Positions 41,801-47,862 of a DNA stretch of 64,000 bases are shown in pieces. The notes below the pieces were generated by a model that was given only the letters and a program-made list of their open reading frames with translations, did no database searches and was not told where the DNA came from. The translations under genes were made by a program, and so were the position numbers. The DNA is taken from assembly GCA_902776565.1 (NCBI GenBank), contig CACYQN010000007.1, positions 122,246 to 186,245 of the forward strand, written 5' to 3'. Each line of letters starts with the position of its first letter. The first letter of the stretch is position 1. Origin of the DNA: an uncultured Bacteroidia bacterium. Lineage in GTDB: Bacteria > Bacteroidota > Bacteroidia > Bacteroidales > ML635J-15.

Positions 41801-43292
41801 CATAAAGGTACAGGTTACTGGCAAGCGCGACAAGAAAGACCCTGTCATCAAGATAATTGCCGACAATATACTTGTGTTGCTTATGAGCGTCAAGAACGTT
41901 TCGGCAAACGTTAGCGAGACAAACGGAACCTTGTTGCCTGGCTATATGGGCAAGACCAAGCTGATTGGTATGTCGAAATATACGCCCGATGTGGAAATGT
42001 TCGGAGAACAGCCGTCGCTCATTGCTCCTACCTTCCCGTTTGTAATAGGATGGCAGGTAAAGGATTTCGGCGAATGGGCTTGCGAACATAACCTTGTCAC
42101 AAAGGACACCACTTCAATTCAGGCCTATACGCAGACACATTCGCGCAACTGGAACTTCCGTGCTTCGCTCGAGCCTGTCCGCGACCTTAAGATTGACTTG
42201 TCGATGTTGCACAACTATTCCGAGAACCAGACTAAATATTATAGGTATGGCATCGACCCGGCAACTGGCGAAGGCACATTCCGCGCACTTAACCCGTCGA
42301 TGACAGGTTCGTTCTCGATGTCAACAGTGACAATAAAGTCGGCATTTGAGAAGTTCAAGTCCGAAAATTATGTGTCCGAGACATTTGCAAGGTTCTCCGA
42401 AAACAGATTAATCATCGCCCAGCGTCTGGCAAACGAACGTCCCGACTACGACGGAACAGTTGACGAAGACGGATTCCCAAGCGGATTTGGACGCACGGCT
42501 CAGGACGTACTTATTCCTGCATTCTTCGCAGCCTACACAGGACAAGACCCAAATAAGGTCAACCTAAGTACTATTCCGGGCTTGTGGTCGGCACTTCCAA
42601 ACTGGCAGGTAGTTTACGACGGATTAAGCAAGATTCCGAAACTGAAAAAGGTATTCCGTTCGGTAAGCCTCAAGCATTCGTACCGTTCGACCTACAACAT
42701 CGGTAGTTTCCAGACACGTCTTATCAACGAGTACGACCCCGACGAGAACGGTCTGAACCATATCCGCGACGAACTCCACAACATCTATTCGCGCTACGTT
42801 GTCAACGGCATAAGCATAAGCGAGCAGTTGAGCCCACTCATTTCATTCGATATGATGCTCGTCAACAGTATGACTGTTAAGGTTGAAGTAAAGAAGACTC
42901 GTAACCTTACGATGAGTTTCTCGAACAACCAGCTTACCGAAGTCAAGAACAACGAACTTATAATAGGTGCAGGCTATCGTTTCAAGGATGTTGCGCTTAC
43001 AATAAGTGTCGGAGGTAGAAAGCGTGACCTCAAGAGCGACCTTAACCTGCGTTTCGACTTCTCGGCTCGCAAGCAGATTACAATGATACGAAAGTTGGAA
43101 GAGGCTCAGGACCAGCCTACATCAGGAAATATACAATATACATTCAAGTTGTCGGCAGACTATGTACTTAGCAACAGGTTCAACGTAAGTTTGTTCTACG
43201 ACCAAAGCATTAACAATCCGATTGTTGGCACATCGTTTAAGACTGTTAATGCAAAAGTTGGCTTAATGCTGAGATTTACTCTTGCTACTTGA
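35829..43292 (+). CDS. sprA: T9SS outer membrane translocon SprA/Sov
   Basis: 2487 aa; IDIKPQGSAEL, EYIEFWMMDPF, EVWVNELRL; ruvA-sprA-gcvH synteny. Confidence 0.93.
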   Translation: MFGRVLKYIFVGGLMAAMMVVAFVPSNAKNGSRGHYPSLQKFAELPGPDDDTTKTEGNAKFPLPKENVNPSDNTDNSPLYGSDPSNVSTSVEYDPETDSYNFQKNVDGMPIGTPYNMPFDDYVNYNFEKAMNSYWHQRAKKNREQNQEINTNLIPHLEVGGEIFDRIFGGNVIDIKPQGSAELTLGLEYTRTDNPAIDSKQQRQVNLDFDEKIQMNVVGQIGTKMKVNISYDTEASFDFENNVKLEYTGDDDDIIQKIEAGNVSLPLTGTLIQGSQSLFGVKTELKFGKLTLTGLLSQKKSETSTINVEGGSTTKEFEIKADNYEENKHFFLSHYFKENYDRSMTNLPVIMGGVTINRVEVWVTNKTGNYTDARNIVALVDLGESNSNDIQSMYVSSSLHNNTTVPPYNDVNILGNLAQDYPEIRDINTVSSTLQNLQMSGGTDFEKIESARKLNPSEYTLNAQLGYISLNSKLNADQVLAVAYEYTVNGEVFTVGEFSNSAIAAPQTLIVKLIKGTSFTPSKKNWDLMMKNIYNIGAYQITREDFTVDILYTNDKTGTDLTYIPAGAIDSIQLLRVMGLDNLNTNNDPYPDGMFDYVENFTISSSGGRIIFPVREPFGSYLYDKITGGNSALNNVADGYVFPELYDSTKSKAQQMAEKNKFKLKGRYKSNSSSEISLNAINVPQGSVSVTAGSTLLVENVDYTVDYNLGRVKILNQGILEAGTPISITLESNSVGSMQTKTLTGLHANYDFSNNFNIGATILHLKEKPMTQKVNIGEEPLSNTIWGANLSYRTDWPFLTKVIDFLPLIQTKEMSTVTFNAEFAQLLPGHSKAIGKEGAAYIDDFESSKITNDVKSYVSWSIASTPNDSILFPESSKINDLDYGKNRARLSWFVVDQTLHESSSTISIEDRSSHYTRLVYEKELFPNRESESANLEKNLAPLNLVFYPNEKGPYNYDVAGMNSLGLLENPRKRWAGIQRQLTTTDFEDANIEYIEFWMMDPFVEDSTNPGGDLYFNLGDISEDILKDGRKAFEQGLPAPSLENPVDTTAWGIVPNSQALVSAFDNSAEIRFAQDVGFDGLSTENETTFFSDYLEQVKTMFGENSQAYQMALADPSSDNFHHYKGSDYDEQGLNILQRYKYFNGLEGNSIPREYQTETYITNSTTTPDVEDINRDNTLSESENFFQYRVSIRPQDLIVGQNYIADKTTVTVTLANDETSQVSWYQFKIPISEYSKKVGSISDFKSIRFMRMFMTNFDTTTCLRFGTLDLVRGEWRKYDDSFLQPGEYVVNELENTSFDVSAVNIEENASRRPVNYVLPPGVTREQNTMNPQLQQLNEQAMTIKVIDLADGDARAVYKNVYLDVRKYLRMQMFVHAESVVGKDEIKDGDISVFVRLGTDYKNNYYEFEVPLKVTPEGYYYGDDTESPDRYLVWPEENDINIVFEDLTKVKENRNELIRLGNQNVGLTKLYYEMNERGRISVMGNPTLSNVQTIMIGVRNPKQVTLNGADDGLPKSAEVWVNELRLTNFNEKSGWAATARATAKLADFGTVTLSGTTKKPGFGALNSTIKDRLTEEIYQYDFSSSFEFGKFFPERFNVRIPLYVAVSENVSNPEYDPLSPDVLMKNTLSNPDISKEYKDSIKHLSQDYIKRTSVNLTNVKVNGKQGQKPHIYNLSNFSLSYGYNNIFQRDPNTVFRTTITHTASFFYNYNATPKIVEPLKNVKLFKKKAFQILRDFNFYYLPSQLSFRTNLNRQYGETQIRNVYDPSYSLPISVIKDFTIIRQYDFKYNFSKNLKFEYTATNNARIDEPEGRLYKGDPEYEQKMDSIWKNFKTFGRNTSFYQQWSASYTLPINKIPIFNWISASVRYQGSYNWTAGAITADTLNIGNVVQNANTMSASTQFNLLNLYNKVKYLKDVNNKYRGRASTKKKETETVTYEENINKLAAGKKKTISHKLKTKNVSIKVTDDKGRPITADMQVIDDNKLSFTVEKDVEDIKVQVTGKRDKKDPVIKIIADNILVLLMSVKNVSANVSETNGTLLPGYMGKTKLIGMSKYTPDVEMFGEQPSLIAPTFPFVIGWQVKDFGEWACEHNLVTKDTTSIQAYTQTHSRNWNFRASLEPVRDLKIDLSMLHNYSENQTKYYRYGIDPATGEGTFRALNPSMTGSFSMSTVTIKSAFEKFKSENYVSETFARFSENRLIIAQRLANERPDYDGTVDEDGFPSGFGRTAQDVLIPAFFAAYTGQDPNKVNLSTIPGLWSALPNWQVVYDGLSKIPKLKKVFRSVSLKHSYRSTYNIGSFQTRLINEYDPDENGLNHIRDELHNIYSRYVVNGISISEQLSPLISFDMMLVNSMTVKVEVKKTRNLTMSFSNNQLTEVKNNELIIGAGYRFKDVALTISVGGRKRDLKSDLNLRFDFSARKQITMIRKLEEAQDQPTSGNIQYTFKLSADYVLSNRFNVSLFYDQSINNPIVGTSFKTVNAKVGLMLRFTLAT

Positions 43293-43348
43293 TAAAATAG
43301 TGTTATTTTTGGCGAATAAATTTTGTATTAACATTAAAAATAAATAAA

Positions 43349-43729
43349 ATGGCATTTCCAAAAGAATTAAAGTACGCAGAATCACACGAATGGTTGCGCG
43401 TAAACGGCGAAGAAGCTTACATTGGTATTACCGATTTCGCAGTATCAGAATTGAACGACCTCATCTACATTGAAATCGAGGTTGAAGGTGAAACTCTTGA
43501 AAAGGGTGAAGAATTTGGTGTTATCGAAGCATCAAAGGTTGCATCGAAGGTTTATATGCCAGTTTCTGGCGAAGTTCTCGAAGTTAACCAGGACGCTCTT
43601 GACAATCCTGAAATGTTGAAGGACGACGCTTACGAAAACGGCTGGTTGATTAAGATTAGAATGACCGACCCGTCACAGGCAAACGCTCTTCTCGATGCTG
43701 CAGCTTACGAAGCATTGACAAAGAAATAA
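43349..43729 (+). CDS. gcvH: Glycine cleavage system H protein
   Basis: LKYAESHEW, GITDFA, lipoyl-Lys in EASKVAS, GWLIKI. Confidence 0.93.
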   Translation: MAFPKELKYAESHEWLRVNGEEAYIGITDFAVSELNDLIYIEIEVEGETLEKGEEFGVIEASKVASKVYMPVSGEVLEVNQDALDNPEMLKDDAYENGWLIKIRMTDPSQANALLDAAAYEALTKK

Positions 43730-43750
43730 TAATTCATTACGGAATTAGAG

Positions 43751-43781
43751 AAAGCCACTTCGTTCGAGGTGGCTTTTTTTT
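43751..43781 (+). terminator. Intrinsic terminator after gcvH
   Basis: aaagccac-ttcgttcgag-gtggctttttttt. Confidence 0.8.
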
Positions 43782-43826
43782 GTGGAGATTACTTGTTGGT
43801 TTATACTCCCGCCCCTTTTCCTTGCA

Positions 43827-43901
43827 GTCATCGCGGAAGCTAGTCAAAGCACGCGATACGGCACGGGGAGCATTGCGGAGACTGCTATCCGCGATCTCCA
43901 C
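43827..43901. repeat. Structured ~75-bp repeat, unit 1
   Basis: GTCATCGCGGA...GATACGGCACGGGGAGC...ATCCGCGATCTCCAC. Confidence 0.8.
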
Positions 43902-44022
43902 GCACAAAGTACCGCACGTTTGTTTTTTGCCCAATTTAACGCCTTTAAGGTTTTTAACGACCTTAGGGCGAGGGGGCAAACAACATTGCGGTAATTTTCT
44001 CACCACAGACCCCAGCCATGTC

Positions 44023-44098
44023 GTCATCGCGGAAGCCAGAGCGCACACACGATACGGAACGGGGAGCGTTGTAGCGGTCGGCTATCCGCGATCTCCAC
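44023..44098. repeat. Structured ~75-bp repeat, unit 2
   Basis: GTCATCGCGGA...GATACGGAACGGGGAGC...ATCCGCGATCTCCAC. Confidence 0.8.
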
Positions 44099-44112
44099 AC
44101 ATTGCGGTAATT

Positions 44113-44245
44113 TCGACCCCAGCGGGGTCACATATATGTAGCAGCGATAGCTGCGATGGTAAAGCGCTGGCGCACGTTTTTGTGGTTCGACAGGCTCACC
44201 AACCATGCAAAAACTGTGACAGCGCACAATTTAGCAGACAACAAT
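44113..44245. mobile_element. MITE-like element, partial copy C (right half)
   Basis: gcgctggcgcac...caaaaactgtgacagcgcacaatttagcagacaacaat matches copies A and B. Confidence 0.7.
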
Positions 44246-44315
44246 AATTTTATTTCGCGCATCAAATATTTTTTATTAAGTTTGTGGGATAACAAAAACA
44301 ATAAAAATATTATAT

Positions 44316-46232
44316 ATGGATAAGCAAAATAACTTGAAAATGATGCTTCAGAATGCTGAGCATCCGATTACTGTATTGTTGGGTGGCGACAAGATAAAGG
44401 AACAGATGGAAGCCATCGAAAGCATTGCATCGGGCGTTGATACGATTCTTGTTGCCGGCGCACTCGTTGCTCCTTTTGCAAAGGCAAGCGGAATGAATGT
44501 CGGAAATTCGAAGACCTGCGACGAATGCGTTGCTCGTGCAAAGGAAATCCTTGCAAAATATGCTGCAAAGATTTGTCTGCCTGTTGACTGCTACGTTGCC
44601 GACAAGCCCGAAAACGATTCCAATATCGAACATGTTAAACTCAACGAAATTCCCGATAGTCGCTTCATCATGGACATCGGTGTTAAGACCGTTGATATTT
44701 TTGCCGAGAAGATTGAAGGCGCAAAGTCATTCATCTGGAACGGCACCCTTGGTCACACCGAAATGCCACACTTCGCATACGGAACCTACAAGACCGCTCT
44801 CGCTGCCGCACGTGGCACTGCCAACGGACTGAAAACTATGGTTGACGGCGACGATACTAAGGCTGCAATTTTGCGCTATGGACTCGAAGGCGGAATGTTC
44901 TTCGTCGAAGGTGGAAAACTCGTTGAAAAGGCGGAACGCAAGGTCGTACACACCGACGAGGCACCAAAGGACGGCTACACTATCGACAAGTACAATTTCA
45001 ACGGCAAGAAGGTTTTGTTGCGTGTCGATTTCAATGTTCCGCTGGACGAGAACTTCAACATTACCGATGATACCCGTATCGTTTGCGAAGTTCCGACAAT
45101 CAAGAAGATTTTGAAGGATGGTGGCGCTGTAATAATAATGTCGCACCTCGGTCGTCCAAAGAAGGTTGACAATAAGTTCTCGCTCAAGCACATCGTTAAG
45201 CATGTAAGCGAATGCCTCGGTGTTCCCGTACAGTTTGCCGACGACTGCCAGAAGGCTCAGGCACAGGCTGCTGCACTGAAGTCGGGCGAAGTTCTGTTGC
45301 TCGAAAACCTTCGTTTCTACGCCGAAGAGGAAGGCAAGCCACGCGGACTGGCCGAAGATGCTTCCGACGAGGAAAAGAAGGCTGCAAAAGCTGCTATAAA
45401 GGAATCGCAGAAGGAGTTTGTAAAGATTCTCGCATCATACGGCGACTGCTATGTAAACGATGCCTTTGGTACTGCTCACCGCGCTCACGCTTCGACATAT
45501 TATGTTGCTAAATATTTCCCGAAGGACAAGATGCTCGGTTACTTGGTTGAAAACGAGGTCAACAACATCAACAAGGTGCTTACCACTGGCGAAAAGCCTG
45601 TTACGGCTATCGTTGGCGGTTCGAAGATTTCGACCAAGATTGACATTATCAAGTCGTTGATTACCAAGGTTGACAACCTGATTGTCGGTGGCGGTATTTC
45701 ATATACTTTCATCAAGGCGATGGGTGGAAATATTGGTCGTTCGTTGGCTGAGGACGATTGCATTCCTATTGCAAACGAAATCCTCGATATGGCAAAGAAG
45801 TTGAATGTAAACCTCTATCTGCCAGTTGACTGCATGATTGGTGACAAGTTCGACAACGAAGCCAACATCCACATGGCCGACGTTCGCAACGTTCCAGACG
45901 GCTGGGAAGGCATGGATATGGGTGTGAAGACCATACAGCGTTACACAGAAGTTATTGAAAATTCGAAGACCATCCTTTGGAACGGACCTATGGGCGTGTT
46001 CGAGATGGAACACTTCAGCAACGGTACGATGAAGGTTGCTTTGGCAGTTTGCCGTGCTACAGAACTTGGCGCATTTACCCTCGTAGGTGGTGGCGACAGC
46101 ATTGCAGCACTCAACAAGTTCAACTTAAGCGAAAAGATTAGCTACGCATCAACTGCTGGTGGTGCTTTGCTCGAGTACATCGAGGGCAAGGAATTGCCGG
46201 GACTGAAGGCAATATCTTCAGATGAGATTTAA
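44316..46232 (+). CDS. pgk: Phosphoglycerate kinase with an extra N-terminal PGK C-domain-like module
   Basis: [46 protein letters not shown] from about aa 220 onward; aa 1-205 resemble the PGK C-domain. Confidence 0.93.
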
Positions 46233-46253
46233 TTTATATGAGTTAATAAAGCA

Positions 46254-46290
46254 GAAAAGGTCGTTTTTTCAACGACCTTTTCCTTTTTTT
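46254..46290. terminator. Bidirectional terminator between pgk and kamD
   Basis: gaaaaggtcgtt...aacgaccttttcc-ttttttt. Confidence 0.8.
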
Positions 46291-46305
46291 ATCAAATCTG
46301 TCTAA

Positions 46306-47862
46306 TTATTTCTTGCCTTTCATCAGTTCTACAAACGGATTGAAGTAGTTTTCGCCCTTTTCGGTAACACCAGCAAGACCTTTACCTCCATTCTTCGGAC
46401 GCTTAATGTTTGCGAAGATACCTTTTTCCAATGCGCTGAACAGACCTTCGTCAACCATGTGTTCAAGAAGCTTGGTTGCATTGTCGAGAACCTCGGCTGC
46501 ACGTTTCCTGATGATTCCGTTTTCCTTGAATTCTACTTCTTCACCGATGCTCTTCATGTTGTTGAAGATGTATTTTGCATTTTCGATTGACAGATAACGG
46601 TCGCTCATGAACGGCGTATGTATTGCTTCGGTAGGCATACCGAGAAGTTGCAGACCTTGATGTGTCCAGATACCTATCATGTTGAAGAGAGCATCTTGAA
46701 TGTGTCCACGGAAAATATTTCCTGTCATGAACTTTGTTGGAGGCATGTATTTCAACGGAGCCTTCGGGAATATTTCGCGGAGCATCTGAGCCTGTGCAAG
46801 TTCGTAGAGGAAACCGTTTTCGAGTTTCGGGTCCATCTCGAATGCGTGGCCAAGACCCATCTGTTCTTCGGGAAGACCAGCCAACAATGCAAGCTGTTCG
46901 TTGATAAGGTCGGATGCGAGAACGGTGTGGGCTTCTTCGTAGGCATCGGCGGTTGTAAGGTAGTTGTCCTCACCAGTGTTGATGATAACGCCAGCGAAAC
47001 CATTGATTATCCTCGAGAAGTACTGGTCAATAAGGGTACGTTGCATATTGATGTCGCGGAAAAGAATTCCGTAGAGAGCATCGTTAAGCATAACGTCGAG
47101 ACCTTCGAGTGCGCCCATTGCAGCGATTTCGGGCATACACAATCCAGAGCAGTAGTTGCAGAGGCGGATGTAACGTCCAACTTCCTCACCAACTTCGTCG
47201 AGAGCCTTACGCATAATGCGGAAGTTTTCCTGAGTTGCGAATGTTCCACCGAAACCTTCGGTTGTTGCACCATATGGAACATAGTCGAGAAGGCTTTGTC
47301 CTGTAGTTCTGATAACTGCGATAATGTCGGCACCCTGACGAGCACCAGCTTGTGCCTGAACGACATCCTCGTAGATGTTACCAGTTGCAACAATGATATA
47401 CAGATATGGCTTGCTGCCTTCACCGATGGTCTTGATGTAGTTTTCGCGGCGCAGACGGTTGCCTCTGATTTTTTCTATAGTCTTATTGATTGTCGGCTCA
47501 AGGGCTTTCTTGATTTCATCTATCGGGTGAATCGGAAGCTTTGAAATGTCAAGTTTGCCAGCGGAAATTTGCTCTGCTATTTCCTGTGCCGACAATTTAG
47601 TTTCAACCATTGCGTTACCGATATAAAACATAACGCCTTGATTCAAAACACCTTTTGATTTCAATTCTTCAACTACTACGTTTGGAAGAGGGACATCGTT
47701 ACTGTCGATGCCATCAATTCCGAGCAGACGGCACAAAGTTCTTTCTACTGCTACAGTGGTGTAGTTTTCAACGAAATCCTGTACTTGGTTGGCAATTTCT
47801 CTTGCTTTTCCTCTTGCGTATTCAACTTCTTCGAAGTTAAGACCTATTTTGCTGGTATTCAT
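46306..47862 (-). CDS. kamD: Lysine 5,6-aminomutase alpha subunit
   Basis: TTVAVERT, VATGNIYEDV, IRTTGQSLLDYVP, NYCSGLCMPE, KYMPPTK. Confidence 0.9.
   Translation of the reverse strand: MNTSKIGLNFEEVEYARGKAREIANQVQDFVENYTTVAVERTLCRLLGIDGIDSNDVPLPNVVVEELKSKGVLNQGVMFYIGNAMVETKLSAQEIAEQISAGKLDISKLPIHPIDEIKKALEPTINKTIEKIRGNRLRRENYIKTIGEGSKPYLYIIVATGNIYEDVVQAQAGARQGADIIAVIRTTGQSLLDYVPYGATTEGFGGTFATQENFRIMRKALDEVGEEVGRYIRLCNYCSGLCMPEIAAMGALEGLDVMLNDALYGILFRDINMQRTLIDQYFSRIINGFAGVIINTGEDNYLTTADAYEEAHTVLASDLINEQLALLAGLPEEQMGLGHAFEMDPKLENGFLYELAQAQMLREIFPKAPLKYMPPTKFMTGNIFRGHIQDALFNMIGIWTHQGLQLLGMPTEAIHTPFMSDRYLSIENAKYIFNNMKSIGEEVEFKENGIIRKRAAEVLDNATKLLEHMVDEGLFSALEKGIFANIKRPKNGGKGLAGVTEKGENYFNPFVELMKGKK

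Follow-up and report, generated by a model that had tools for sequence, protein, structure and literature searches.

Within a 64,000-nucleotide (nt) stretch of DNA from an uncultured Bacteroidia bacterium (hereafter the window), an open reading frame (ORF) on the forward strand, at positions 44316..46232, encodes a phosphoglycerate kinase (PGK) of 638 amino acids (aa) in which a degenerate copy of the PGK C-domain precedes a complete enzyme. PGK is a textbook two-domain, monomeric hinge-bending enzyme, and what we describe is a known enzyme in a new architectural form, with no new chemistry shown. We refer to this architecture as C′-N-C, where C′ denotes the additional leading domain, and N and C the two domains of the enzyme behind it. 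From sequence comparisons and structure models, we consider it rather probable that C′ is a non-catalytic, entrenched pseudo-dimer partner of the working C-domain.

The Pfam family PF00162 matched the ORF twice. Residues 223-625 span profile positions 1-379 of 379, and residues 221-638 alone scored 491 bits against a cut-off of 27. The first 220 aa, when scanned alone, matched profile positions 172-368 with 154 bits (E = 6.2e-45), a match that covers residues 6-200 in the scan of the whole protein. When residues 1-220 were compared to residues 221-638 by BLASTP, C′ residues 5-209 aligned to the protein's own C-domain with 82 of 210 identities (39%, E = 5e-48), a likeness far beyond chance. Both results bear out an earlier note, made by a model from the sequence alone, which had reported a 638-aa ORF with a C-domain copy at its front; the motif pairs that it quoted are all present in the translation. 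Along the forward strand, the protein divides into C′ (residues 1-205, 44316..44930), a remodelled tail and linker that replaces the hinge helix and LPG strand (residues 187-222, 44874..44981), a canonical N-domain (residues 223-400, 44982..45515) that includes a 26-aa insert (45327..45404), and a canonical C-domain with intact catalytic motifs (residues 401-638, 45516..46229).

Residues 223-638 match the monomeric bacterial PGK (PF00162; PDB 1PHP, 3UWD) over the whole profile and with all motifs intact, namely RVDFNVP, DDTRI, SHLGRPK, ENLRF, GTAHR, GGSKxxxK, GGG, WNGPxGVFE, and GGGD(S/T), each of which has an established role in PGK. These motifs of the 3-phosphoglycerate (3-PG) site and the nucleotide site were identical in all 11 C′-N-C rows that we compared. 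Judged by them, residues ~223-638 would constitute the cell's canonical PGK (EC 2.7.2.3): in the source genome (3.36 Mb, 99.9% complete), this gene was the only canonical match to PF00162, next to one divergent paralogue. What the window protein adds to the monomeric enzyme is a 220-residue N-terminal pseudo-domain and a hydrophobic patch. An AlphaFold2 (AF2) monomer model of the 638-aa chain reached a mean predicted local distance difference test score (pLDDT) of 92.3 and a predicted template modelling score (pTM) of 0.88, with pLDDT below 50 only at residues 213-216 and values of 81-97 across blocks of residues 1-200; in the tail, a beta-hairpin was predicted at residues 195-204. The model superposed on open PGK structures with a template modelling (TM) score of 0.95, normalised to the target. 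A Foldseek search with the model returned ordinary PGKs only, and none of the 46 distinct PDB sequences that were matched (the longest of 511 aa) was a chain of two PGK units.

A comparison with 69 other PGK C-domains revealed how C′ has degenerated. Twenty-five invariant core positions are still in place, the Glu of GxxE among them, but C′ has diverged at 19 sites that are at least 95% invariant in the other C-domains. The losses include the second Lys, the last glycine of GGG, the proline of WNGP, and two of the GGGD glycines, as well as the entire hinge and LPG return segment. In C′, the region of the second Lys reads KIKEQ (with Q in 10 of 11 rows), GGG is changed to (A/G)G(A/C/S), GPxGVFE to GTLGHTE, and the GGGD glycines to D/E/L/I and D/S/N/E, and Ile (I118) takes the place of the glycine that precedes MD(I/M)G. 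The altered second Lys and GGGD loop and the preserved Glu had all been pointed out before. Compared with a catalytic, nucleotide-binding C-domain, C′ thus retains the fold and the profile match and lacks the catalytic loops and the STxGGA hinge. Because C′ has no N-domain of its own and its loops are degenerate, it cannot be a PGK; the earlier description of the domain as non-catalytic is well supported by the absence of its own 3-PG-binding N-domain and by the 19 lost positions. In addition, C′ has 13 positions that are invariant within it and rare in other PGKs, and 8 of these lie within residues 170-217 (N170, R187, E191, G193, M194, F196, E215, and P217).

C′ is under purifying selection. 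Across 15 distinct coding sequences (CDS), the ratio of non-synonymous to synonymous substitutions (dN/dS) was 0.08-0.09 for C′, 0.03 for the linker, 0.02 for the N-domain, and 0.005-0.009 for the C-domain, with dS values of up to ~1-1.9 and neither a stop nor a frameshift. C′ might still be regarded as a neutral, decaying remnant without a role, in keeping with its degenerate catalytic motifs, the long stem branch of its clade, and a non-synonymous rate that is ~4 to 15 times that of the N- and C-domains. Against this stand the low dN/dS and the uninterrupted frame in all 15 sequences, the 25 core and 13 C′-specific invariant positions along with a conserved predicted interface (see below), and the persistence of the form in divergent members at 51-53% identity. 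The neutral remnant is hence already disfavoured, and we regard it as very improbable.

The 15 CDS derive from 15 genomes of one genus (g1), all have 636-638 codons, and all encode the same architecture, which excludes a misassembly. The earlier note had proposed a search for homologues of the same architecture and had named a misassembly or a stop as fatal to its claim; the 15 genomes, as well as a 90% protein cluster of the 638-aa form with 213 members, dispose of that concern. One 638-aa member is named 'phosphoglycerate kinase' by NCBI. An exhaustive HMMER search of 1.84 billion representatives yielded a single C′-N-C representative (633 aa), with tandem PGKs as the next matches; for a stand-alone C′ protein, this search yielded only short high-identity fragments (86 and 70 aa). 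Among proteins with matches to the PGK C-domain, several had unusual lengths (563, 540, 564, 1031, and 1918 aa for P0132, P0138, P0139, P0143, and P0223), some with two or three matched stretches; these may be other PGK fusions or partial duplications. In one genome (G010, L011:1069-3417), the frame is open for 144 codons upstream of the same ATG, through the repeat region described below, but the resulting 782-aa ORF, which would start from TTG, is spurious and does not represent a longer protein form.

The gene is also represented in RNA libraries. In four metatranscriptome libraries from as many studies, contigs extend over C′, and those of X2, X3, X5, and X7 bridge the C′/N junction (44976); one contig of 1947 nt corresponds to 44313-46259, beginning 3 nt upstream of the ATG and ending in the terminator hairpin. 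DNA may be present in such libraries, and the contigs give no transcript ends. These data bear on the idea that the locus makes two products, with an internal start at M194 giving a ~445-aa PGK, or that the long form is an artefact of assembly or gene calling. The earlier note had stated that neither a stop nor a Met occurs near the normal PGK start: the first part holds, but the second does not, as an in-frame ATG (M194, nt 44895) lies 27 codons before it. M194 was invariant in seven aligned orthologues, while V210 and V211 (GTC and GTA) are not start codons. Public gene calls likewise differ at the 5′ end, with starts at Met1 or at Met9/10 (638, 629, and 630 aa), and starts in Bacteroidetes lack Shine-Dalgarno signals, so that internal starts are hard to exclude. 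However, 15 assemblies give 15 distinct CDS in the same frame, RNA-library contigs bridge the junction, and the constraint at the codon level over residues 1-193 indicates that this part is translated; moreover, M194 is itself a C′-specific invariant residue beside the predicted interface. We therefore deem two products or an artefact a poor explanation, with little probability.

To trace where C′ came from, 57 genomes of the same family were surveyed with C′ as the query. The C′-N-C form occurred in 15 of them (73-100% identity), all of genus g1, and 32 genomes had two C-domain matches ~1180 nt apart within a single frame of 795-818 codons; the remainder were fragmentary (four genomes) or without a match (six). 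The gene of genome G035 encodes a 795-aa head-to-tail PGK-PGK (N′-C′-N-C) with intact catalytic motifs in both units. A protein search limited to lengths of 437-1392 aa listed 120 clusters, 117 of them of 790-808 aa and named, where at all, 'phosphoglycerate kinase' or 'hypothetical', and a different family of this order also has frames of 809 and 813 codons. Within the surveyed family, the first tandem unit had itself already drifted (THWGRPK, HRNHAS, GGDK, WDGP..YE). C′ was 44-47% identical to first-unit C-domains (~180 bits), compared to ~40% for second-unit C-domains (~150 bits). In a maximum-likelihood tree of 81 C-domain rows, the 11 C′ rows formed one clade, with a support of 100 in the Shimodaira-Hasegawa-like approximate likelihood ratio test (SH-aLRT) and a stem of 1.19 changes per column, nested inside the first-unit C-domains of family f1 with enclosing branches of 96 and 99.

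The tandem protein aligns with the window ORF from tandem residue 180 on. A tblastn search with the first N-domain of G035 against window positions 43000-46300, aimed at a remnant of N′, matched the canonical N-domain only; neither the ORF nor the 1.3 kb ahead of it contains the first N-domain, and the window protein is thus no tandem fusion of two complete units (~794 aa). From these comparisons, it is very probable that C′ is what remains of the first unit in an old tandem PGK-PGK, and not the product of a fresh internal duplication. The ancestor would have carried a ~795-aa N′-C′-N-C fusion, as the rest of the family still does; a rearrangement would then have deleted the first N-domain, with a new start codon within the inter-domain helix, leaving C′-N-C behind gcvH. 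The term 'duplicated', as used for the domain in the earlier note, accordingly holds in the remote sense of an old tandem fusion, but the tree and the first-unit identity show that C′ is not a copy of the protein's own C-domain. That note makes no mention of the tandem enzyme, on which the interpretation turns. One observation weighs against the placement: C′ has WNG, where the nearest first units have WDG, and, given this residue and the long branch, it is uncertain where exactly C′ belongs among the first units.

The tandem PGK-PGK of uncultured Bacteroidales and Bacteroidia (~794 aa) is thus the direct ancestor type of the window protein: C′ is orthologous to the C-domain of its first unit, the C-domain to that of its second unit, and the two forms have a conserved surface patch and the same family of rumen metagenome-assembled genomes in common. 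The window form differs in that it lacks the first N-domain (~180 residues), its C′ loops are degenerate, and its tail is remodelled. It also stands in another genomic context, and its N-domain, which includes the 26-aa insert, belongs to the type found in single PGKs.

This last difference points to recombination. In an alignment of 81 units, the 26-residue insert was typical of single Bacteroidales PGKs of ~420 aa, and tandem PGKs lacked it. The N-domain of the window protein shared 80, 76, and 73% of its residues with single PGKs from family f7, the cluster of which is named as a Candidatus Cryptobacteroides PGK; its identity was 79% to one f7 single PGK versus 57-62% to the second unit of its own family. 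The C-domain showed the reverse, with 68-70% identity to the family's second unit versus 50-56% to single PGKs. A sliding window located the switch in identity at about unit residue 165-185, near the GTAHRAHAS hinge, and the left boundary of the foreign patch is probably near RVDFNVPL. In approximately unbiased (AU) tests, grouping the N-domain with the family's second units was rejected (p = 0.0005, log-likelihood difference of 102), as was grouping the C-domain with insert-bearing single PGKs (p = 0.0015, difference of 76). These comparisons make it likely that recombination with a single PGK (~420 aa) of the Ca. Cryptobacteroides type put a foreign core into the N-domain (~residues 245-400) in place of the original one, whereas the C-domain, by the same comparisons, is orthologous to the family's second unit. 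Some results speak against so simple a picture: broader groupings were not rejected, either of the N-domain of C′-N-C with all tandem units (p = 0.38) or of its C-domain with all singles (p = 0.54), and the groups for the AU tests were chosen after the trees were seen. Because every C′-N-C form seen, including the most divergent, carries both the truncation and the insert, both events predate the C′-N-C clade; among these forms, we found no intermediate between the two events.

What keeps a catalytically incompetent domain under selection is suggested by a model of its docking. C′ (residues 1-212) and N-C (residues 221-638) were folded as separate chains, and the complex model obtained an ipSAE score of 0.87 (0.87, 0.87, and 0.83 in the individual runs), compared to 0.00 for the best of three controls. 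The runs agreed in at least 94% of contacts, with a partner pLDDT of at least 91. Of 80 solved complexes, 58 attained the scoring mark, as did 2 of 110 mismatched pairs, a calibration that is only rough here as a custom alignment was used. The model speaks for binding between C′ and the C-domain without demonstrating it. In this model, the confident contacts of C′ all fall on residues 505-609 of the C-domain, the N-domain being left untouched, and residues 91-189 form the C′ side. Since 22 of 23 C′ interface residues up to 189 map by an offset of +414 onto interface residues of the C-domain, the predicted interface is isologous and dimer-like. Its contact pairs are reciprocal (152 with 537, and 123 with 566), and L162 is paired with L576, the equivalent residue of the C-domain. 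The interface positions of C′ were more conserved than the rest of the domain (mean entropy of 0.34 versus 0.77, Mann-Whitney p = 0.0004), and the C′-specific invariants Y93, Y158, and R187 sit within the predicted interface.

Residues on this surface are shared with the tandem enzymes. Positions 518, 520, 537, 538, 572, 573, 576, and 580 were I, H, I, K, L(I), K, M(L), and R in both units of 118 tandem PGKs, while the same eight positions were variable and polar in 99 single PGKs, with E, K, R, or Q at 576. The tandem surface signature (I518, H520, K538, K573, L/M576, R580, and Y/F602) is present in the window protein, as I, H, K, K, L, R, and Y in C′ and as I, M/L, K, K, L, R, and F in its C-domain. 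The latter has a hydrophobic patch of L576, M572, and M507 where monomeric PGKs carry E, K, R, or Q and other polar residues. Changes particular to the C′-N-C clade fall on both sides of the predicted contact (Y93, Y158, and R187 in C′; M507, M520, M572, and F602 in C), which, by position, looks like a re-fitting of the pair.

In our preferred reading, then, C′ would no longer catalyse and would be kept by packing against the catalytic C-domain through a pseudo-two-fold, dimer-like interface that uses the same surface on both partners and is centred on L162 and L576. This interface was probably inherited from an intramolecular C1-C2 contact of the tandem enzyme, which would also account for the survival of C′ after the loss of its own N-domain. 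As C′ would cover the patch, its loss would expose hydrophobic residues on the cell's only canonical PGK, and selection would for that reason hold C′ in place as an entrenched pseudo-subunit. C′ may also tune nucleotide binding or hinge closure, an effect made possible by the position of the predicted interface (residues 151-153 and 565-567), which comes immediately after the GxxE nucleotide motif in each partner. A wider and more tentative version holds that the tandem PGKs of Bacteroidia are intramolecular dimers formed by a hydrophobic, isologous C-domain interface, so entrenched in this lineage that C′ was forced to remain as a pseudo-subunit once the first unit died and lost its N-domain, with C′ now maybe an allosteric lid on the nucleotide side of the sole working active site; we see this as possible and give it distinctly less credence than the partner role of C′ itself.

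Several points weigh against a pseudo-dimer partner. The docking is a matter of model confidence only, and the interface was read from a model of separate chains, whereas the linker to be spanned has 8-18 residues. An AF2 model of the whole tandem PGK of G035 (pTM of 0.52, junction pLDDT below 50) did not fix the two units relative to each other, so that the case for an ancestral interface comes from residue conservation alone. The tandem PGKs form one clade, and their shared residues may reflect descent rather than an interface, while the 99 single PGKs in the comparison come mostly from distant bacteria. Three g1 genomes that are 96-98% complete show only the divergent PGK paralogue; the canonical enzyme may be dispensable there, or simply unbinned. 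Finally, part of the adenosine site is retained in C′ (E149, N142, G23-G24, and K26, the latter being K in 10 of 11 rows), and a residual ligand site is thus possible.

The retained residues favour a sensing role as suggested in the earlier note, in which the former ATP/ADP pocket of C′ would bind a nucleotide or metabolite as an effector and regulate the attached PGK. Strong purifying selection on C′ and the location of the predicted interface directly after the GxxE motif on both partners fit such an allosteric domain too, and the predicted docking is compatible with it. The second Lys, GGG, GPxGVFE, the Gly before MD(I/M)G, and GGGD are all altered in C′, however, and acidic residues replace phosphate-binding glycines, which weakens this proposal by placing negative charge at the phosphate site. 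We consider a sensing domain unlikely, if a more serious contender than the remnant or the internal start. The model is less kind to a working circular permutant in the making, in which C′ would pair with the N-domain as an alternative catalytic C-domain. The C′-N order is indeed that of a permuted PGK, and PDB 1FW8, among the matched structures, is presumably the engineered circular permutant of yeast PGK. Yet C′ has lost its phosphate-binding loops and hinge tail, its predicted contacts involve residues 505-609 only and none in the N-domain, and the trailing C-domain is present and intact, in contrast to a circularly permuted PGK. The chance that such a permutant is forming appears to us slight in the extreme.

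The earlier suggestion of a circular-permutation intermediate nevertheless has a formal counterpart. The permutation-by-duplication model, as laid out in PMC3320104 with DNA methyltransferases as an example, predicts a tandem duplicate truncated at one end (N-C to N-C-N-C to C-N-C). The C′-N-C protein matches this path, and differs from the intermediates as presented there in that its leading copy is non-catalytic and its trailing C-domain is kept. As C′ is degenerate and predicted to touch the C-domain and not the N-domain, it is not heading to a working C-N permutant, and this part of the suggestion falls away.

Other multidomain kinases offer partial parallels. In mammalian hexokinase I and eukaryotic 6-phosphofructokinase, duplicated and fused kinases retain one degenerate half that binds effectors. 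Both halves are complete in those enzymes, whereas half of the dead copy is deleted here. Kinetoplastid multidomain and 'dead' PGKs, in the passages of PMC7729029 considered here, bear either an insert or additional PAS, CNB, or HTH domains, in each case on a complete PGK domain; they likewise have extra domains or lost catalysis, but those passages contain no PGK half-domain fused to an active PGK. The PGK-triosephosphate isomerase (TIM) fusion of Thermotoga (NF010569) is similar in total length, with a 645-position profile, and is the only PGK fusion with a curated bacterial model. The window protein has no TIM domain by Pfam and scored 599.8 bits against the cut-off of 883, over profile positions 5-394 only, so the earlier remark that the fusion differs from PGK-TIM stands. 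The tandem PGK of G035 (L019:283-2667), by comparison, reached 943.7 bits on NF010569, above the cut-off and yet without a TIM domain, because its two PGK units add up, and this score is a likely source of misannotation for tandem PGKs. A literature search, which left most subscription journals outside its reach, brought up no account of either a fused double PGK or the C′-N-C form.

At the locus itself, a candidate Bacteroidetes -7 promoter box read from the sequence, TAAGTTTG (44277..44283, forward strand), lies 33 nt before the ATG; the Bacteroidetes -7 consensus is TAnnTTTG. A sigma-70 promoter scan gave 3 sites versus 4.0 expected, nothing above chance. A terminator-like hairpin with a T run lies downstream (46254..46282, forward strand), and the long RNA-library contig ends within it (46259). 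Two copies of a dispersed ~85-nt repeat (43820-43904 and 44016-44101, no strand assigned) are located between gcvH and the PGK gene. A 201-nt repeat query had 31 matches in the genome, at 74-100% identity and on many contigs, and an Rfam search of the upstream repeats gave 0 matches at E ≤ 1. The ~85-nt unit is a small dispersed intergenic repeat of the repetitive extragenic palindrome (REP) or miniature inverted-repeat transposable element (MITE) type at the truncation site, and, standing at the place of the lost N′ domain, the repeats may be linked to the truncation. No RNA-library contig covered 43787-44134 in four runs, nor 44135-44308 in three, a gap that proves nothing.

The sprA-gcvH pair lies upstream in 29 of 29 C′-N-C loci and in 0 of 12 tandem loci; near these 12 tandem-PGK loci, none of sprA, gcvH, the 518-aa downstream gene, or the M16 peptidase was found, and gcvH was not found near two f7 PGK loci. 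The 518-aa gene (46306-47862, reverse strand) adjoins PGK in only 1 of 14 relatives with 6-kb flanks (L029), which indicates that the 3′ neighbourhood is variable even inside the C′-N-C clade.

The divergent paralogue is a third PGK-family gene (G000:C1:133158-134369; L002:1480-2781) of 433 aa that scored 289 bits to Pfam. It has RVDHNV, has lost the Arg of GTAHR (GS-WQAHAS), and has VNAVMGF in place of WNGP..E, with both lysines and GGGDT kept; its 90% cluster comprises 116 members under the name 'phosphoglycerate kinase'. A copy of the paralogue with 28-30% identity stands next to or within a few kb of the tandem PGK in G035 and G050. G003, G006, and G034, the three g1 genomes mentioned above, have the ~433-aa paralogue and no canonical, tandem, or C′-N-C PGK, and G021 and G031 (90-95% complete) had no PGK match at all. 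In such genomes, the PGK role may fall to the paralogue; alternatively, the canonical gene escaped binning.

All of these forms are named plain 'phosphoglycerate kinase', and the tandem form exceeds the PGK/TIM cut-off, which together set an annotation trap. Beyond this, single PGK, whole tandem PGK, and tandem PGK minus one domain make up a three-step natural series that bears on the entrenchment of interfaces, on the fate of duplicated enzyme halves, and on circular-permutation intermediates, and that yields a concrete prediction of which surface joins the pieces and why the dead piece cannot be lost. If tandem PGKs are indeed intramolecular dimers, C′-N-C would be a natural, datable case of a 'hydrophobic ratchet' within one chain of an enzyme that textbooks describe as monomeric. 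The protein would likewise be a one-end-truncated intermediate of permutation by duplication, in which domain-level recombination between families has probably reshaped a core glycolytic gene of abundant rumen Bacteroidales.

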